A DNA stretch of 64,000 nucleotides, taken from the sequence record OZ336094.1; one strand, written 5' to 3'. The position numbers and the translations under genes were made by a program. Origin of the DNA: a phage. Below, piece by piece: positions 9,319 through 58,053 of this stretch. Each line of letters begins with the position of its first letter. The first letter of the stretch is position 1. The notes under the pieces are model-generated. The model was given only the letters and a program-made list of their open reading frames with translations. It made no database searches and was not told where the DNA came from.

Positions 9319-11091
9319 TTAATAAGAACCAGCAGAAATATTTTCTGGGTTACTTGTGTATTGATCGTAATCGTGAAGTGTAGCTGTTTTAATCTCATAG
9401 AAGAAACTACCTGCTGCACCAGTCTCTGAGAACTCACGGTTCTTTAGAATGTAGCAATATGTGCGGTTACGTTCCATAGGATCTTCAGCTTGTTTATCCC
9501 GCTCCAGCGCAATTGTAATACCAGCACCTTTAGCAAGGAAGCTACTACCCATTGCATCATCTTCTACAATATGTTCATTACTATTGTTAGAAGACTTTTT
9601 AACGTGTGAAATTACAACAATGGTTATTGCGTACTCTTTCATAATGCGTTTCAGCCACGTCGCAAGTTCCTCTTGTTGTGACACGTCCATACCAGAAAGC
9701 AAGTCAGAATAAGGGTCGATAACAAGAATGGTTACTCCGAAATAAATAATCATTTCCAGAACCTTCTCTTTAATCACATCTACGTTAGCTCCACGATCAT
9801 CACAAACATAGAAACGTGGTGTTCCATCTTCCCGTTCGTAAAAATCACGAATCTTTTCTTCATTATCTTTTAAAATCTTTTCCTTCTCTTCTTTCGTTTT
9901 ACGGTGAAGAGGGATATGCAAGAATGAAGACAGTAAGTTACGAGAATACTTCTTATACGTTGCCTCCAAAGATAAAATACCAAGAGTATGTTCTGGGTGT
10001 GCAAGAATAATGTGTTTCGTAATCTCGTTAACCAACAGTGTCTTACCGATACTTGTTTTTGCAAGTATAACAGTAATTTCTTCTTCTACCAAGCCTCCAC
10101 CTAACATATTCGAAGCAACACGCATGAATGGAGGAAGGGTGATCATTTTAGCTTCCAGGCATTCCAAGGCTGCTTCATACAGTACGTTAGAAGCGTAAAC
10201 ACCAGCAGGTGTGTACAGTTTAGCTTTGAAAAAGCGATCAATAAAATGATCAATTTTTCCTTCTACTAGTGCCTGGTTAGGATCTTTAACATCCGTTAGT
10301 TCCATCACGTAAACTTTATTACGTGGTAAGATTTTAACACATTTCTCAACTGCTGCACGTCCAGCTTCATCATTATCCATACATAGAACAATCTTTTTAA
10401 ATTGATCTAAGAATTTATAACGATGTTGAAGCTGCTTATGCAGAGATGTTTCGCCACAAGTACCAGATACTACAGCAGGAACAGGATATTTACCACCCTT
10501 GTTATAATCTTTTAGCATCTGTGTTGCAGCCAGCATATCATGTTCACCACCAACGATTAGAATAGTACCGCTGTGGTTACGATATTTAAACTCACCAAAA
10601 AGATCACAATCCTTTCCTGTTTCACCGATAGGATGTGAGAAATCTTTTGGATCGATACGTTGTTTATACCCAGCAATATTGTAATCTTTAGTTGTAGGGT
10701 ATAGTGTTGAAATTACTTCGCCAGTAGCTTCATCGTACATATAGCGTACACCGAAAGGCTTAGAGATATCTTCACGAATACCGCGATAACCTTTTGGATT
10801 AGTTCCAGTGCTGGCTTTTAGTTTATCATGTACTTCTGGATTAAACTCACTACCCAAGATATCCTCCTCTTCAATTTCTTCGCCGTGTGCATTTAACCAT
10901 TTTTGATCAGGGATAGTAAAGCCACAAGAAAAACAATGTGCGCCTCGATGATCTTCATCGGCATCTAAGCCATATACCATCAAATTGTTTTGTGATCGAT
11001 CACGCCCTCCTTTCATACAACGAGGACACCCAGTATGTCCTTCTTGACTTAAATCAATGTTATACCCATATTTATTTACAACATAAGACAC
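9319..11091 (-). CDS. Primase-helicase (T7 gp4-like): N-terminal zinc-ribbon primase plus DnaB-like helicase
   Basis: Zn-binding CPRC...CFSCG at N-terminus; Walker A AKTSIGKT in C-terminal half; 590 aa. Confidence 0.75.
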   Translation of the reverse strand: MSYVVNKYGYNIDLSQEGHTGCPRCMKGGRDRSQNNLMVYGLDADEDHRGAHCFSCGFTIPDQKWLNAHGEEIEEEDILGSEFNPEVHDKLKASTGTNPKGYRGIREDISKPFGVRYMYDEATGEVISTLYPTTKDYNIAGYKQRIDPKDFSHPIGETGKDCDLFGEFKYRNHSGTILIVGGEHDMLAATQMLKDYNKGGKYPVPAVVSGTCGETSLHKQLQHRYKFLDQFKKIVLCMDNDEAGRAAVEKCVKILPRNKVYVMELTDVKDPNQALVEGKIDHFIDRFFKAKLYTPAGVYASNVLYEAALECLEAKMITLPPFMRVASNMLGGGLVEEEITVILAKTSIGKTLLVNEITKHIILAHPEHTLGILSLEATYKKYSRNLLSSFLHIPLHRKTKEEKEKILKDNEEKIRDFYEREDGTPRFYVCDDRGANVDVIKEKVLEMIIYFGVTILVIDPYSDLLSGMDVSQQEELATWLKRIMKEYAITIVVISHVKKSSNNSNEHIVEDDAMGSSFLAKGAGITIALERDKQAEDPMERNRTYCYILKNREFSETGAAGSFFYEIKTATLHDYDQYTSNPENISAGSY

Positions 11092-43239: not shown

Positions 43240-44412
43240 ATGACAGCACCAAAATCATGGGAACAATATAAAGAAGAATTAACACCCCTTGCTAAAAATC
43301 GCAATATTCAAATCCTGGGTTATGTTGGTGAATGGAAAGGGAACAAGACTAAACTTAAGCTATCTTGCCCTAAACATGGAGAGTGGAACACCACGAACAT
43401 TAATGATTTTAAGAAGGGACGTGGTTGTCCTATCTGTTCTGGTAAGAAGCCGTTAACATGGGAAACAGAATTGCCGATCTTGGAAGAGATAGCACAGAAG
43501 AGGGGGTATCAGGTGTTAGGGTACGTGGGAGAATGGAAAGGGAATAAAACAAAACTTGATTTGTTGTGTCATTGTGGTAATAAATGGGATACTACAAGTA
43601 TTAACAATTTTAAACGTGGTAGCGGTTGTCCACAATGTAAGAGGGAGAGACAAACAATGTCCGACGATCAACATATTGCAGATTTCTTTTCTACAGGGGA
43701 ATTTAAGGAAGGCACTATCTTCACCAATACAGGGAAACGTAACAAGCGTGATACAGTATGGATGGTTGAGTGTCCTGTTTGCTCCCATGATGAATATGTT
43801 CAAGCAGGTGTTTGTGATGGTAAATTTTACTCTGCAGGACATAACCTTAAACAAGGGTATATTCCGTGTCGTTGTGGGAACTATCAGTATACAGAAGACC
43901 AGATCACCTATAGGGTAAAAAAGGAAGTAGAAGGGAAAGGGTATGTCTGGGTAGATTGGATTACCAAACCCTCTTCTATAGGTAAGTTTAAATATCTTTG
44001 TCTTGTGCATGGTGAGCAGATAGGGAGTGCTCGTAATTTATTAAGCCTCGGTCAAGGTTGTCCACAGTGTGCTGGTCATAATCAACAGCAATTATATATT
44101 AATATTGTTAAAGATAATGATATTATAGTTGCTCTTAAGTTTGGTATATCTAAAGATAGCGATAGACGATTAAACGGTCAAAATAGCCGTAATCTGTTTT
44201 TTATGGAGCGTATTTGTTTATATGATTTTAGCACAGTGAAACAATGTAGGGCTGCTGAAAGAGCTATAAAGAAAAAATTAAAAACTGGTATTTTAACGGC
44301 AAGAGAGTTGAAAGATGGTTATACAGAAACAGTAAGTGTTTCTGATTTGGAAAATCTTCAAAAAATTATTACACAATATGGTGGCAAATTAGTATACAGT
44401 AAGGAGATGTAA
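43240..44412 (+). CDS. Zinc-ribbon repeat protein with C-terminal GIY-YIG-like (T5orf172-type) domain; possible nuclease / homing-endonuclease-like
   Basis: Repeated modules LGYVGEWKGNKTKL..C..G.W.T..IN.FK.G.GCP.C; C-terminus LYINIVKDNDIIVALKFGISKDSDRR resembles GIY...YIG spacing. Confidence 0.35.
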   Translation: MTAPKSWEQYKEELTPLAKNRNIQILGYVGEWKGNKTKLKLSCPKHGEWNTTNINDFKKGRGCPICSGKKPLTWETELPILEEIAQKRGYQVLGYVGEWKGNKTKLDLLCHCGNKWDTTSINNFKRGSGCPQCKRERQTMSDDQHIADFFSTGEFKEGTIFTNTGKRNKRDTVWMVECPVCSHDEYVQAGVCDGKFYSAGHNLKQGYIPCRCGNYQYTEDQITYRVKKEVEGKGYVWVDWITKPSSIGKFKYLCLVHGEQIGSARNLLSLGQGCPQCAGHNQQQLYINIVKDNDIIVALKFGISKDSDRRLNGQNSRNLFFMERICLYDFSTVKQCRAAERAIKKKLKTGILTARELKDGYTETVSVSDLENLQKIITQYGGKLVYSKEM

Positions 44413-44964
44413 ATGCGGATTACTGATAAGTATGTGTTCTTCTTCTCGGCAAAAGATGAATTTAGCAACTGGTATCTATCATCTTTTATTGAACCTTTAG
44501 CTCCCAAGTATAATAATTCTATTACAAGTTCTGTTGAATTTACTTGTGTGGAACAATATATGATGTGGAGAAAAGCATGTTTGTTTTATGATTACAACAT
44601 TGCATCTTCTATTTTAACCGGAGATCTAAGATATACAGGAGAAAAAGAACAGGCATATTATAAGCGACTAGGTAGATTAGTTAAAGATTACGATGAAGCT
44701 ACTTGGACTTCTTTACGGGAGAAGATTGTCAAGCGTGGTTTGTATCTTAAATACACACAAAATGAAGATCTCAAAAATAAACTTATAACCTACGCAGATA
44801 AGGAGTTCGTAGAGGCAAGCCCTTATGATTCTATTTATGGTATCAAAATGGGGATGTGGGATCGTGATGTGGAAAATAAGGACTGTTGGAAAGGACAAAA
44901 TCTTTTAGGAAAATGGCATACAGACCTTGCTGTTTATCTAAAAACACAATCTGATATTTCCTGA
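44413..44964 (+). CDS. NADAR (YbiA-like, DUF1768) domain protein
   Basis: FFFSAKDEFSNWYLSSF, EQYMMWRKACLF and SIYGIKMGMWDR align with YbiA motifs (FYSTSDDYGDFSNF, EHYFQAQKF, DAYWGDGGHG). Confidence 0.55.
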   Translation: MRITDKYVFFFSAKDEFSNWYLSSFIEPLAPKYNNSITSSVEFTCVEQYMMWRKACLFYDYNIASSILTGDLRYTGEKEQAYYKRLGRLVKDYDEATWTSLREKIVKRGLYLKYTQNEDLKNKLITYADKEFVEASPYDSIYGIKMGMWDRDVENKDCWKGQNLLGKWHTDLAVYLKTQSDIS

Positions 44965-45180
44965 TATTTTGAAAATTTTTATTTTTATAAAAAGGGGTGT
45001 GGGTTTCATGTACGGAAATTCACCCTCTGCACAGTATATCCAGAGTAAGTAGTATTCTACACCCTGTTAATAAAGTATTTAATTTGTTTGTTGGACTATG
45101 GTATCTGATCTTTAAAAGACATACTATCTCTTAACTACTACTTATAACAGAACAGTAAAATCATTTTTATAAAAAGTACA

Positions 45181-45382
45181 AAATTATTTAAAGTTTTTAC
45201 AGATTTTTGGGTACAAATTTTGAAAATGAAAAGTTCAAGTTTGGTCAAAATTATTTAAAGTTTTTGTACGTATTTCTGTCCAGATTTTGAAAATGAAAAC
45301 TTCAATTTTTTAAAAATTCCCCAGTTTATTTAAAGTTTTTTTGCCTTTTTCCGTAGAAAAATCAAAAATGAAAAGTTCAATT
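45181..45382. repeat. Three imperfect direct repeats of about 66-76 bp, each with TATTTAAAGTTTTT and TTGAAAATGAAAAGTTCAA blocks
   Basis: Seen directly; conserved blocks with 34-37 nt spacing; ORF-free AT-rich DNA. Confidence 0.7.
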
Positions 45383-45401
45383 TCGTGTTTTTATAGGTGT
45401 G

Positions 45402-45515
45402 TTAATGAGAATCATTTTCGTTTGTAAATGAGAATCATTATCATTTAACTATGTAAGTGATAATCATTCTCAGTAAGAGAATGAGAATCATTAGCAAATG
45501 AGAATTTTCTCATTT
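45402..45515. promoter_or_regulatory. Array of five or more palindromic AATGA-GAA-TCATT boxes (Fur-box-like)
   Basis: AATGAGAATCATT x3, GTGATAATCATTCTC, and perfect palindrome ATGAGAATTTTCTCAT; one base from the Fur core AATGATAATCATT. Confidence 0.5.
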
Positions 45516-45776
45516 AGAGAATAACGCGCAGGGGCGGTGTTTGTCTCGCGCTCCCGTGTCCCCTCGCCATACAATAAGAATAGCATAACCAACAACAAAA
45601 GCAAGCGATTATTTTTATCTTTACATTTCTTTACAAATTTATTTTAGACGAGCTACCGGCGATCAACCTTCCAACCAGTGCCCCCTGGTATGTTAGCCCC
45701 GCCTTTACGCCGTGGGGGTGGCGTTTCCTCTTCTGTATGTAAAACAGTATAAGCCCGATCCCTGGGCTTGTCAAGA

Positions 45777-46043
45777 TTATTTTTTGTTTTCTTGCCAGGA
45801 TAGGACACCTAACCAAAAATACATGTCGCCCCGCGCCCCTGGCGGGATCTTGCTTTCCCCGCCGCCACTGCAAGCCCATAGATAACCATTAGCGAACGGA
45901 TCAAAATGATCTATTTCTTCCACCTTATGATCGCCCAGGTTGAGAACGGTTTCAACCTTTAAGCCCGTTGCGCTTGCTACCTGGTGCACCGTGCCGCCTT
46001 GCCAGCCTAATGAGTGCATGAGGTGTAGAGTAGTATTTGTCAT
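45777..46043 (-). CDS. Hypothetical protein, 88 aa, in a GC-rich segment
   Basis: Track ORF; RBS aaaggg; local GC well above genome average; adjacent out-of-frame ORF 45631..45879 suggests possible frameshifted remnant. Confidence 0.3.
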   Translation of the reverse strand: MTNTTLHLMHSLGWQGGTVHQVASATGLKVETVLNLGDHKVEEIDHFDPFANGYLWACSGGGESKIPPGARGDMYFWLGVLSWQENKK

Positions 46044-46156
46044 GGTATCGCCCTTTCTTTGATGTGCGCCCTGGTTGGCGCGGTAGAAAGATAATAGCCC
46101 TTTCCTTTATAGATAGCAAGCAAAAAAAAAGAAATGAAAAAAAGATTAAAAAAGGG

Positions 46157-46185
46157 GTTGACGTTCCTCACCTGGTAGCGTATTA
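46157..46185 (+). promoter_or_regulatory. Sigma70-like promoter TTGACG-N17-TATTAT
   Basis: Good -35/-10 with 17-nt spacer; no canonical ORF immediately downstream. Confidence 0.4.
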
Positions 46186-46313
46186 TTCATCTTGTCGAGG
46201 GGGGCGAGGCACAACGACAATAAACAAAAGGAGGGCGCAATGTAGGACGGGCAAAGGTGAGGATCTCCATAATCCACCGTCACAATAACATTACTTATAA
46301 AAGGTTGATAACG

Positions 46314-46409
46314 ATGATCAAGAAAGAAAACAGCTTGACGGTTGGAACGATTAACGCTATCATTCTTGCCGTTCCATTTTGGATTGTAGTTGCGGTTATT
46401 ATTTTTTAA
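46314..46409 (+). CDS. Possible small hydrophobic peptide, 31 aa
   Basis: Hand-translated MIKKENSLTVGTINAIILAVPFWIVVAVIIF; weak RBS. Confidence 0.2.
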   Translation: MIKKENSLTVGTINAIILAVPFWIVVAVIIF

Positions 46410-46417
46410 AAATATTC

Positions 46418-46473
46418 TTGACAACGTTTTTTAATCTGATAAGATGTATCACATAGGGCGGCAATAGTGCCGC
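46418..46473 (+). promoter_or_regulatory. Promoter + 5' stem-loop cassette (TTGACA-N16-TAAGAT; hairpin GCGGCA-ATAG-TGCCGC)
   Basis: Member of repeated cassette family; followed by purine-rich RBS and ATG at 46498. Confidence 0.55.
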
Positions 46474-46497
46474 TCATAACAGAAGAGAGAAATAATC

Positions 46498-46770
46498 ATG
46501 GCATCATATAGCGCATCAATGATCGTAATGGGCATCACTGGTAAACCTATGCGCGGTGGCGGATCTTTCGCTAACATCAATATTGATGGGCGTTTATCCC
46601 TGGATGCAGCGATCACCGTGGCACGGGAAACATTTAAAAAAGAATGTAATTTCAATAAACAAGATTATCTCGGTTTCGCTATTGAAAAAACCGCGCGATT
46701 TGTGGATTATAAAAGCCCGAAAATGATCGACACTACACTAAAAGCGCAAGATGTAGCGTTTTTGCTTTAA
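46498..46770 (+). CDS. Hypothetical small protein, 90 aa
   Basis: Track ORF directly downstream of cassette. Confidence 0.5.
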   Translation: MASYSASMIVMGITGKPMRGGGSFANINIDGRLSLDAAITVARETFKKECNFNKQDYLGFAIEKTARFVDYKSPKMIDTTLKAQDVAFLL

Positions 46771-46773
46771 GTC

Positions 46774-46833
46774 TTGACACTGAAAAATAATTTGGTAATA
46801 TATACTCCATAAGGCGGGAAATGGTTTCCCGCC
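46774..46833 (+). promoter_or_regulatory. Promoter + 5' stem-loop cassette (TTGACA-N16-TAATAT; hairpin GGCGGGAAA-TGG-TTTCCCGCC)
   Basis: 9-bp perfect stem immediately after -10; ATG at 46859. Confidence 0.6.
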
Positions 46834-46858
46834 AGGCCATCAAAGAAAGGGTAACACA

Positions 46859-47221
46859 ATGAGCAAGCAAATCAATACTATCATGTTAAACCTGGTATCT
46901 TTCCGCGACGACGTGAAAAATCTTCCACGTGATGCAGTGGATGCACGGATCGAAAGCTATCGCTCACAGATCGCAACGCTACCGCTAAAACGTGATCAAC
47001 ATGCCGCTAATATGATGCTTAATGCTATGCTTAAAAAGATGATTCAATGTGATCTTACCCTGGCTTATGAATATGCTGGCGATCTCTTTGTAACATATAG
47101 CAAGCCCGTACCAGGTATGAGCACAACGGAAGAATTGCATGCCTTAAATCTGCGACAAGATGCATGGGATAACATGCGCCGTGTTATGGTATGGGTAGAA
47201 AGCGGTAAAATTTACGAATAA
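46859..47221 (+). CDS. Hypothetical small protein, 120 aa
   Basis: Track ORF downstream of cassette. Confidence 0.5.
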   Translation: MSKQINTIMLNLVSFRDDVKNLPRDAVDARIESYRSQIATLPLKRDQHAANMMLNAMLKKMIQCDLTLAYEYAGDLFVTYSKPVPGMSTTEELHALNLRQDAWDNMRRVMVWVESGKIYE

Positions 47222-47227
47222 AAACGG

Positions 47228-47280
47228 TTGACATTGCACTAAAACCTGATAAGCTATCTTAAAGCGGGAATAGTTCCCGC
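47228..47280 (+). promoter_or_regulatory. Promoter + 5' stem-loop cassette (TTGACA; hairpin GCGGGAA-TAG-TTCCCGC)
   Basis: Cassette family member; ATG at 47300. Confidence 0.55.
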
Positions 47281-47299
47281 TTACATAGGATAAAACTTT

Positions 47300-47446
47300 A
47301 TGAAACAATATGTAATGAGTATTCACACCAAAAACGGCGCTACTGTTACGACTCCGGCACGGTTTGCACTTGTAAACCGTTGCAAGAGACTAAAACGAGA
47401 GCTAAAAAACAACCGTGCAACGGGCTTTAAACGCTGGGGAGGATAA
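47300..47446 (+). CDS. Hypothetical small basic protein, 48 aa
   Basis: Hand-translated MKQYVMSIHTKNGATVTTPARFALVNRCKRLKRELKNNRATGFKRWGG; downstream of cassette. Confidence 0.4.
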   Translation: MKQYVMSIHTKNGATVTTPARFALVNRCKRLKRELKNNRATGFKRWGG

Positions 47447-47448
47447 TC

Positions 47449-47709
47449 TTGTTTTTTCTAAAAGTTTTTGATAATGTGATCGCTTTTGAACATGCTGCAA
47501 CGTTCAACCTGGCGAGATACGCTATCAGGTTTAAAGATAATGTTTATCCCCGTGCTGGCGGCGGTTACACTATTTTTAATCATCGCAACGCGCAACTGAC
47601 TGATATAACTAATCCAGATCCGGGAGTGTATCGCATAGGCTGGCTACCGTCAAAAGACGCGGCAAGCATGTTTAAGGTATGTAAACTACTAACAGAAGAG
47701 GCAAATTAG
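47449..47709 (+). CDS. Hypothetical protein, 86 aa, probable TTG start
   Basis: Track ORF without in-frame ATG near start; RBS ggggagga upstream of TTG; uncertain. Confidence 0.3.
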   Translation: MFFLKVFDNVIAFEHAATFNLARYAIRFKDNVYPRAGGGYTIFNHRNAQLTDITNPDPGVYRIGWLPSKDAASMFKVCKLLTEEAN

Positions 47710-56303: not shown

Positions 56304-56316
56304 ATAACATTTCATA

Positions 56317-56346
56317 CCAGGGCGCACAAAGCGCCCTTTCTTTTTA
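56317..56346 (+). terminator. Intrinsic terminator (AGGGCGC-ACAAA-GCGCCCT + T-run)
   Basis: Same stem as 50955 and 55167 terminators. Confidence 0.6.
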
Positions 56347-56548
56347 CCTAAATAAAGATGATAGCTTTTACCTATCAAGAACGTTCACCGAAAAAAGTGA
56401 ATAGATCGCGGTATCGAGCTAATCAAGGAGCAGATGAACAACCATACCATGAAGATCATAAGGCGCTTACAGCGTGTTTTAGACCGCTTATTTTTAATTT
56501 CTTCATGCAACTATCTGGCAAAAACAGCCTTTTTCTCATCTTTCCTCT

Positions 56549-56626
56549 TAAATGATAATCATTCTTATTTATAGCTGATTATTTATGCAATAAACTGCAT
56601 AATGCAATAATGATAATCATTCTTAA
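56549..56626. promoter_or_regulatory. Two exact AATGATAATCATT palindromes (Fur-box core) in an ORF-free AT-rich region
   Basis: ttaaATGATAATCATTcttat and caataATGATAATCATTcttaa. Confidence 0.5.
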
Positions 56627-56986
56627 CTTAAGACCATCTAACTTATAAAATAATAAGTTATCTAACTAAATTAAAGCTAATTATCTTACTTTTATTTATA
56701 ACATACTGTTACTATCTTATTGATAACTTTATATTAAACAACAATAATCAATGTAAATCATTACTAAGCTAACTATAATCTATCTAACCCTTAAAACTAT
56801 AACTATAATCTATCGAATTGTTGCACAAAGTAACTATTAAATTGTTAGTAACATTGCTAAATAATTAATATCCTATCTATTTATGATCTAATCTTTACCT
56901 TCCTATTTATCACCTAACTAATCATTCCATATAGTAATCATTTCATACAATAACTATAACAAGAAATATAATTCGCAAGCGTATCA

Positions 56987-57182
56987 TTAGCAGCCTATGC
57001 CGGACACATAGGCGGCTAATAATAACGCAACTACACACCCCACATAATAACCATCACCGATAGTCATTATTTGTGCTTATGTAGCTTGCAACAACTGCAA
57101 GCGCAACAATATACAATTGTATATTGTATCCCTTACATTGTTGCGGTGCGTTATTATTAGCTAATGTTTAGAACATTGGCTA
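56987..57182. repeat. Cluster of three long palindromes in a roughly 1.4-kb non-coding region
   Basis: TTAGCAGCCTATG-N7-CATAGGCGGCTAA; perfect 20-bp palindrome CAATATACAATTGTATATTG; TAGCTAATGTT-TAG-AACATTGGCTA. Confidence 0.7.
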
Positions 57183-57465
57183 TAATATAAGCTAAATAAT
57201 AAGCTATACAATAATAAACATCGTGAATAATGATGCTGATGATCATAATGCGCCACCTTCCAGGGGGGCGCTATGTGAACACAAAGAAATCTTTCTTGTC
57301 AAGAAAAATATTAACACTATTGCGCAAAATTATTTATATATGAATAGATGGTTTTTCATACTATTGCCCCCATATAGCCTATCATTTGTTGAGCCTACTT
57401 TCTTAAAAGCGCAATAAATCAGAATTATCTTGATTTTTAGGGCGTTTTATAGTACAGAAAATATG

Positions 57466-57487
57466 CAAATGATAATCATTATCAGCT
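57466..57487. promoter_or_regulatory. Near-consensus Fur box (gcAAATGATAATCATTATCagc)
   Basis: 17 of 19 positions match GATAATGATAATCATTATC. Confidence 0.5.
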
Positions 57488-57639
57488 ATCTTCCACGGGT
57501 GGCACTATTTCACGCCAGATCATTTCATTTGGCAAGGTGTATATAGATGTTTAGACTTGCCAAGCCATTGATTTACTTAGAATTTATCTGTTTTGTTGTG
57601 AGTAGTACCTTTCTTGCTCAGAAAATAATCAAAAGTCTT

Positions 57640-57672
57640 ATAAGTCATTGAATGATAATGCAAATGATAATT
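57640..57672. promoter_or_regulatory. Tandem GATAAT-type hexamer array (gAATGATAATgcAAATGATAATTATTCTCATTg)
   Basis: Overlapping Fur-like hexamers. Confidence 0.45.
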
Positions 57673-58053
57673 ATTCTCATTGATATTTGAGGGGGACGGT
57701 CGGCAGAAATCGGGGGGCGCTGAAAATCGCGTTAAGCACCTCTCGCAAGCGAGCAGTATTTTGCGGCAAGTTATTGATATTATTGACTTTACGCTTATGA
57801 AAAGGGGGGTGTGTCGAAATAAATCGGGTATACCGGAAAATTTTTGTGGTATAGATATTTATTTGTCTATATTATGTACAAAGGGGTGTGTTAAAAATAA
57901 TAGGTATATATAGAATAATTGATAGGGAAATCCTATACTAATCCCTATACTAATTCCTCCATTAATGATGTTCCTATGTTACTGTTCTTGTAATAGATGA
58001 AAAGACGCTGTATGATGTGTGGCATGAAACGTAAACTTATAAAGGAGTCTGAT

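Follow-up and report, generated by a model that had tools for sequence, protein, structure and literature searches.

Fur operators of Escherichia coli, among them those of ryhB, fhuA, fecI and fepA-fes, are clustered in non-coding DNA and built on a 19-bp inverted-repeat motif, with the proximal site lying between -35-like and -10-like elements; in the footprinted operators, the sites overlap by 3 or 6 bp (PMC2189734). At ryhB, the Fur box stands directly ahead of a short non-coding unit, annotated at 95 nt, that ends in an intrinsic-terminator-like hairpin. The host Fur regulon also reaches phage DNA, as on lambdoid phages, where fur boxes are found ahead of the iron/manganese transporter operon sitABCD (PMC6969025). 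In phage T5, Davison calculated that the shear point of first-step transfer lies at 9618, in Repeat Region 3, in a preprint that makes no mention of Fur or LexA (bioRxiv 10.1101/866236). Our literature search found Fur boxes on phage DNA only for cargo genes of temperate phages, and nothing on Fur boxes in virulent phages of the rV5/phi92-like or T5-like groups.

In this study we focus on five palindromic boxes at positions 45402-45515 of a phage sequence of 64,000 nucleotides (record OZ336094.1; this whole stretch is called the window). Positions 44900-46100 are 100% identical, in reverse complement, to Escherichia phage Paula (LR865361.1), a phi92/rV5-like virulent myovirus of the genus Justusliebigvirus (Stephanstirmvirinae). 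The boxes carry the same 19-bp inverted-repeat motif as the E. coli operators, with equal or higher scores, and are likewise clustered in non-coding DNA, the proximal one between -35-like and -10-like elements. Unlike the overlapping E. coli sites, they are discrete, with a centre-to-centre spacing of 23-29 bp, and they belong to a virulent phage, with neither an iron gene downstream nor a strong sigma-70 promoter. As at ryhB, a box directly precedes a short non-coding unit with a terminator-like hairpin at its end, but this unit is ~205 nt long and shows no Rfam match and no significant pairing with RyhB. Finally, whereas the boxes of sitABCD precede a transporter operon of temperate phages, those described here form multi-box groups in non-coding DNA and in the direct terminal repeat (DTR) of a virulent phage.

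Identity and distribution of the boxes

The boxes of the array are the following.

45404-45422, no strand assigned: putative Fur box 1, AATGAGAATCATTTTCGTT, 21.1 bits with the K-12-derived matrix
45427-45445, no strand assigned: putative Fur box 2, AATGAGAATCATTATCATT, perfect 7-1-7 core, 23.9 bits
45456-45474, no strand assigned: putative Fur box 3, AGTGATAATCATTCTCAGT, 16.4 bits
45480-45498, no strand assigned: putative Fur box 4, AATGAGAATCATTAGCAAA, 17.5 bits
45497-45514, no strand assigned: box 5, degenerate proximal box, 8-2-8 palindrome AATGAGAATTTTCTCATT, sub-threshold in the window

The original prediction had described five closely spaced palindromes in ORF-free DNA, each one base away from the Fur-box core. 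They are indeed present, far above chance, with the positions and sequences given then; only the fifth departs from the description, its half-sites lying one base too close (9-0-9 instead of 9-1-9). The sequence AATGAGAATCATT is found in exact copies at 45404, 45427 and 45480. With up to two mismatches the 13-mer has 19 matches in the window for 4.8 expected, a count reached by none of 100 shuffles, and with up to three mismatches the 19-bp E. coli consensus GATAATGATAATCATTATC has 6 window matches for 0.01 expected, boxes agreeing with this classical consensus at 16/19, 16/19 and 16/19 positions. The array itself, with a GC content of 26%, contains four sites that score 14 bits or more; local dinucleotide shuffles yield 0.008 such sites, and none of 1000 reaches four. 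The absence of genes also holds: between 44965 and 45776 there is no ORF longer than 45 aa, those present being mechanical ORFs only, and no CDS is annotated in the array region of phages Paula, inny or alia, part of this region being marked repeat_region in the last two records.

The scan with a Fur position weight matrix that had been proposed as a check gave the scores listed above for boxes 1-4. The matrix was built from 12 intergenic regions ahead of classical Fur-repressed K-12 genes (fepA-fes, fepD-entS, fepB-entC, fhuA, feoA, ryhB, fecI, fecA, cirA, tonB, exbB and fiu) by searching for the best palindromic 19-mer, unseeded, with each 19-mer tried as a start. The learned motif is AATGATAATAATTATCATT, with T, G or A at position 6 (frequencies 0.56, 0.21 and 0.21, respectively), and GAGAAT/ATTCTC half-sites are found in ryhB, fhuA, fecI and exbB. 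The central G of the phage boxes, which had been taken as a departure from the Fur core, is therefore a natural Fur-box variant. Moreover, the positions at which the phage boxes vary (6, 10 and 14) are those that vary in the K-12 motif. The training sites score 12.0-21.8 bits; boxes 1-4 score as high as ryhB or fecI, and box 2 exceeds all training sites.

Boxes of this kind are also found in the literature: AATGAgAATcATTctCATT is the published Fur consensus derived for Xanthomonas, GATAATGAGAATCATTATT is among the Gram-negative iron boxes, and TTAAATGAGAATCATTTTCATTTAT is among the predicted Fur-binding sequences of A. baumannii. Furthermore, Chen et al. 2007 (PMC2189734) reported that each oligonucleotide with a predicted site was shifted by Fur, intragenic ones included. 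With the matrix scores and these published G-containing boxes, the case for Fur boxes is stronger at the sequence level than the original prediction supposed, and purified E. coli Fur very probably binds boxes 1-4.

The number of boxes at this locus varies from one to five among related phages, with a spacing of 23-29 bp, as follows.

PVP-SE1, EspYZU14 and an Erwinia phage: one (23.3 bits)
NINP13076: two
FBKp34: three strong and one weak overlapping match
KP2025: three strong and one weaker (13.5 bits)
L031: four, with 28-29 bp spacing
Justusliebigviruses: five

The homologue of box 1 in relatives L051 and L027 (the latter on the opposite strand) is TATGATAATCATTCTCATT, with 22.1 bits against 21.1 in the window, the Fur score being kept despite several substitutions. 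That of box 5 is AATGAGAAAAATTCTCATT (17.2 bits) in L027, a relative with 96% identity; in PVP-SE1, EspYZU14 and the Erwinia phage it is a perfect palindrome, AATGAGAATCATTCTCATT, with 23.3 bits. Box 5 of the window is the same box with one base deleted. The sequences thus turn over while each box stays Fur-like, which points to selection for binding one factor rather than for one sequence. The hosts of the compared phages (Escherichia, Salmonella, Klebsiella, Cronobacter and Erwinia) are all Enterobacterales. Taken at the level of sequence, the array is best explained as four canonical sites and one decayed site, predicted to be of high affinity, for host Fur.

The same box extends well beyond these relatives. 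The exact 19-mer AATGAGAATCATTATCATT is present in at least 120 IMG/VR contigs and also in T5-like phages, while two composition-matched scrambles, one of them palindromic, gave no IMG/VR match. Grouped by their flanks with three reference loci, the 118 IMG/VR loci listed form at least 54 families of 29-57% GC; two or more strong sites lie within 300 bp of each other at 83 of the loci listed, and three or more at 36. Several unrelated contigs carry 5-7 discrete boxes at periods of 29 or 41 bp. Examples of phased arrays, from IMG/VR loci L069-L186, are L162 3485-3731, L133 10045-10208, L069 5708-5945 and L081 5780-5906, and such arrays in unrelated contigs often adjoin other direct repeats.

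This distribution bears on the other binder named in the original prediction, a phage regulator of related specificity, according to which the palindromes would be operators of a phage-encoded DNA-binding protein whose specificity resembles that of Fur. Many genes of this phage have no assigned function, and evenly spaced, discrete palindromes are typical of phage and plasmid regulators and of centromere arrays. On the other hand, T5-like phages and at least 54 unrelated contig families carry the identical 19-mer, so that all of them would need to have one phage protein in common, and the positions at which the boxes vary match those of the K-12 motif. A tblastn search with an approximate E. 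coli Fur query detected no Fur homologue in the phage genome. The sole small ORF next to the array is the following.

45777-46043, minus strand: small convergent ORF of 88 aa that has a terminator-like hairpin of its own at 45751-45769

Homologues of this ORF occur only in Justusliebigvirus, L031 and FBKp34, unrelated ORFs occupying its position in PVP-SE1, KP2025 and NINP13076. We rejected it as a box-binding regulator, as it matches no Pfam family and is not conserved in phages that keep the box. With no Fur homologue, no conserved regulator gene nearby and the motif in unrelated phages, the proposal of a phage regulator is weakened, and we regard it as improbable. As a separate observation, the 88-aa ORF, which converges on the non-coding unit described below, carries the motif MHSLGWQGGTVHQV.

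The conserved non-coding unit beside the array

In all nine phages compared, the proximal box adjoins a conserved stretch with these features.

45517-45522, plus strand: putative -10-like hexamer GAGAAT, CAGAAT in most relatives
45529-45530, plus strand: candidate start, an invariant CA in the alignment
45530-45735, plus strand: conserved phage-specific non-coding unit of ~205 nt, 77% mean column identity in nine phages
45534-45546, plus strand: 5' arm of a predicted long-range helix, paired with 45646-45659 (RNAalifold, 13 pairs)
45646-45659, plus strand: 3' arm of the same helix, paired with 45534-45546
45691-45735, plus strand: terminator-like hairpin (45691-45723) and U-rich tail

The records in the nine-phage alignment are assigned to several genera; the phages that share the unit include records of Stephanstirmvirinae and of Vequintavirinae. 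In all nine the order is the same: proximal box, fixed distance, (C/G)AGAAT, invariant CA, CGGTGTTTGTCTCGCG, CTACCGGCGAT, hairpin and T-rich tail. In distant BLAST searches, ~45497-45591 aligns to Seunavirus and Erwinia phages at 78-82%, and Klebsiella phages match overlapping stretches at 67-78%. Inspection of the nine-phage alignment revealed no conserved reading frame in 45530-45735, since indels disrupt the sole ORF there. Rfam gave no meaningful match, RyhB included, at E values up to 1 over 44000-47500. No counterpart of the unit exists in the representative genomes searched, which cover 185,579 species of bacteria and archaea, and a bacterial origin was rejected, 596 Gb of sequence yielding only four chance-level matches without homology in the flanks. 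A scan of IMG/VR with a 15-mer of the unit returned 48 matches, mostly due to chance, of which five are true homologues. The identity of the motif, its enrichment, its conservation and its fixed position beside the unit are direct observations.

The promoter-like signals are of uneven quality. The GAAT and CA columns are invariant in all nine phages, and relative to the (C/G)AGAAT...CA arrangement the proximal box spans about -33 to -16. The -35 element is weak (GCAAAT in the window, TTGAAT in PVP-SE1), two of the nine phages have CGGAAT, without the key -11 A of the -10 element, and a sigma-70 scan at a threshold of 9 of 12 matches found no promoter over the array or at 45517-45522. On the minus strand, the strong apparent promoter TTGACA-17-TATACT at 45774-45746 falls on the terminator-like hairpin of the 88-aa ORF; owing to this overlap, and to the G-U pairs that speak for the plus strand, a minus-strand RNA running through the array was not adopted.

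Folding of the alignment with RNAalifold joins the two most conserved blocks in a long-range helix, in which 95% of cells are paired on the plus strand against 74% as minus-strand RNA; five of its pairs vary one-sidedly, among U-G, U-A and C-G. In the terminal hairpin the figures are 91% and 66%, respectively, with 26 G-U cells and one compensatory change, from C-G to A-U. The G-U pairs favour the plus strand for the helices of the unit. In the predicted structure 94% of cells are paired, whereas slid controls reach 39-51%. Covariation is weak, with two double compensatory changes in all and a score that 61 of 500 shuffles reach, and single-sequence folding of the unit is no more stable than that of shuffles on either strand (z-scores of +1.2 and -0.4). 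Altogether, 45530-45735 is plausibly a non-coding transcription unit of the plus strand. The possibility that it acts as a sponge or mimic of RyhB was discarded, the duplex energy being no better than that of shuffles.

Fur could control such a unit as follows. As long as iron is replete, Fe2+-Fur would be bound at the boxes and the ~205-nt unit would stay off, with the proximal box filling the spacer of its weak putative promoter and the upstream boxes adding cooperative Fur occupancy; upon iron starvation of the host, Fur would leave and the unit would be expressed. What we infer in this scheme is that Fur binds, that the promoter and the RNA exist, and in which direction the unit is regulated. 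We tentatively prefer this reading, in which host Fur sites would control the adjacent non-coding unit and repress it when iron is replete. Against it count the poor promoter-like signals, the weak RNA evidence, the discrete boxes in place of overlapping ones, and the state of box 5 in the window, where a 1-bp deletion has spoiled the very box that is best placed to repress.

The genes around the array encode NADAR, CapR/T5orf172 and AAA ATPase proteins, and no iron-related gene is found near it. The promoter-like sites of the small-gene array lie 650-1000 bp to the right of the boxes, which themselves coincide with no good sigma-70 promoter for those genes. The ~205-nt unit, which had escaped the original prediction, is the closest conserved candidate for a target.

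Boxes in the terminal repeat and in T5-like phages

Over the 146.5 kb of the Paula genome, 11 sites score 14 bits or more, for 0.8 expected, and four score 20 bits or more, for 0.07 expected. All but one of these 11 sites fall in two non-coding regions, namely the array region (region A) and region B (56304-57996), a stretch of 1.7 kb that is free of ORFs and contains the terminal repeat. The features of region B are listed below.

56551-56627, no strand assigned: predicted Fur sites of region B at 56551 (21.1 bits) and 56609 (14.5 bits)
57392-57734, plus strand: direct terminal repeat of 343 bp, placed from the phi92 DTR features and the BME3 record ends
57462-57486: predicted Fur sites within the DTR at 57462/57468 (15.8/15.5 bits)
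57657-57681: predicted Fur sites within the DTR at 57657/57663 (14.8/23.2 bits)

About ten strong boxes per genome, multiplied by replication, could act as a sponge that titrates Fur from chromosomal operators and de-represses host iron uptake, to the benefit of phage iron enzymes, an effect that would depend little on where the boxes lie. Among the products of the genome are putative class I and class III ribonucleotide reductases, both of which need iron, and multicopy Fur boxes are known to de-repress the regulon in the Fur titration assay. The variation in box number, from one to five, would also fit a tuning of dosage. However, a sponge leaves the fixed positions unexplained, whether beside the ~205-nt unit in the nine phages or inside the DTR, and Seunaviruses keep only one box at the array locus. 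Furthermore, Fur is abundant, so that by our own reasoning titration would work only late in infection, and de-repressed outer-membrane receptors could invite superinfection. We consider titration a doubtful explanation of the array.

The terminal repeat is well defined. The DTR-L and DTR-R features of phi92 are identical to each other and map to 57392-57734 of the window at 98%, and the BME3 record starts and stops at the same points; a DTR of 342 bp was determined with PhageTerm in the BME3 paper. These phi92 features and BME3 record ends rule out the idea that the genome terminus is the first base of a Fur box. In the BME3 record itself (PP239276.1), the annotated 'DTR-L' (L188 1658-1999) is shifted by 73 bp from the true repeat. 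At 57468, within a Fur box, the window and the Paula record LR865361.1 differ by T/C.

The second set of boxes inside the terminal repeat hints at a role at the level of DNA. Fur might serve as an architectural host factor in packaging, DNA entry or exit, end protection or the start of replication, transcription control being secondary, with boxes that would assemble a Fur nucleoprotein complex beside phage-specific repeats. Host proteins are used in this way elsewhere, IHF acting at lambda cosB and DnaA at plasmid origins. As for IHF, the likeness, which concerns the DTR boxes only, lies in sites for an abundant host protein near the termini and beside repeats. In favour of such a role, the distance from the DTR sites to the physical end of virion DNA is 70 nt on the left and 53 nt on the right, and KPP-1, a phage of another genus (Mydovirus), has predicted Fur sites at 116713, 116845, 117239 and 117297, at the boundary of its published DTR (116316-116829). 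By contrast, ~11.9 kb separate the array from the terminal repeat, so that it is not at a terminus, where a packaging or terminus signal of the cos or pac type would lie; only the sites at 57462-57681 are near physical ends. The array also stands fixed beside a unit with promoter-like and terminator-like signals, and Fur is not known to take part in packaging, injection or replication.

Phage-specific direct repeats regularly flank such arrays, which again agrees with an architectural role. Here they are the following.

45163-45383, plus strand: three direct repeats of ~70 bp each (family D1), upstream of the array

These repeats are annotated repeat_region in inny and alia, and analogous but non-homologous triple repeats stand ahead of the box in PVP-SE1, EspYZU14 and NINP13076. 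Considered as an iteron-type origin, the locus offers the three 70-bp repeats and the AT-rich array, but there is no replication initiator gene near the array. Regions A and B contain no DnaA (TTWTNCACA), LexA, CRP, FNR or ArgR-like boxes, and apart from the Fur sites have only the short AAAAGGGGTGTG motif in common. In both large non-coding regions, a motif TTAT(G/A)AAAAGGGG(G)GTGTG is present (44982-45005, 45388-45402, 57795-57815 and 57872-57890), which may be a phage promoter or start-site element.

The closest resemblance outside this group is with T5-like phages, to which the array aligns at 76%. Predicted Fur sites score 18.7, 23.9 and 19.5 bits in T5 and 23.9, 20.8 and 19.5 bits in EC100. 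In EC100 (L007 1370-1950) a perfect LexA-type box TACTGTATATTTATACAGTA comes first, then two DnaA boxes; five or six TTTTTAAATGAGAATCATT-type boxes follow, and after them a hairpin and TGTGCAAATCCGACAA repeats. In T5 (L126 14164-14660) a distance of 500-670 bp separates the boxes from the end of the terminal repeat, which puts them at about LTR coordinates 9472-9636, and the array thus spans the shear point 9618 of first-step transfer, a position that would suit an architectural Fur. Repeat Region 3, the injection-stop region of T5 (bioRxiv 10.1101/866236), shares with our locus the same box arrays, a conserved untranslated region and other direct repeats on the flanks. It differs in that DnaA boxes and a perfect LexA-type box are present in the T5-like region and absent from the phi92-like ones, and in that the T5 region lies inside a 10-kb terminal repeat, without a homologue of the ~205-nt unit, whereas our array lies outside the DTR.

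Two further observations on unrelated contigs point in the same direction. In three unrelated contig families the array lies within ~0.2-1.5 kb of the large terminase gene, and among the matches listed, boxes are enriched near contig ends (13 of 41 for 6.2 expected, P ~0.005), although related contigs enter this statistic as if they were independent, and contigs broken at repeats during assembly would produce the same enrichment. On balance we judge an architectural role of Fur unlikely. It ranks after Fur control of the non-coding unit, which remains our preferred reading, and ahead of titration, a phage regulator coming last; Fur control, an architectural Fur and titration are not mutually exclusive.

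These findings suggest that links to host iron sensing, of a kind not described before, are widespread among phages. Phased arrays of consensus strength are present in conserved non-coding hubs and in the terminal repeat of virulent rV5/phi92-like phages, which are relevant to therapy, and if Fur binds them, infection would be wired to the iron status of the host, a matter of relevance for phage therapy in iron-restricted tissues. The same arrays recur at the T5 injection-stop region, which has been a mechanistic problem for decades, and in dozens of unrelated viral lineages; the finding also gives handles on a new phage non-coding unit and on the two-step injection of T5. One could go further and speculate that many unrelated tailed phages co-opt host Fur, the arrays marking non-coding hubs and the ends of virion DNA, as in the phi92-like DTR, the T5 injection-stop region and the places beside terminase genes. 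Fur nucleoprotein complexes at these points would couple DNA entry, end handling or packaging, and early or non-coding transcription, to iron. We hold this broad proposal to be rather unlikely; if true, the stop in first-step transfer of T5 would depend at least partly on Fur. The wider pattern across phages is the part that most deserves experiment.

Further observations on the sequence records

Several features of the records were noted in passing. Between 45 and 64 kb, the window and the Paula record LR865361.1 show a 1-bp offset in length. GATC is in excess across the whole window (323 sites against 181 +/- 11 in dinucleotide shuffles), and several putative DNA methyltransferases are annotated in Paula, the closest genome record. 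Five records labelled 'Campylobacter phage' (MG065645.1, MG065639.1, MG065656.1, MG065689.1 and MG065650.1) match the coliphage group. MG065645.1 has up to 99.6% identity to this group in region A, where the array lies, and four of the five have 98.5% identity in the DTR, while MG065650.1 gives a weaker, partial match (70%); the host labels of MG065645.1 and the others look doubtful. Finally, the skew of the window changes at ~40 kb, the same place at which the strand of the ORFs changes.
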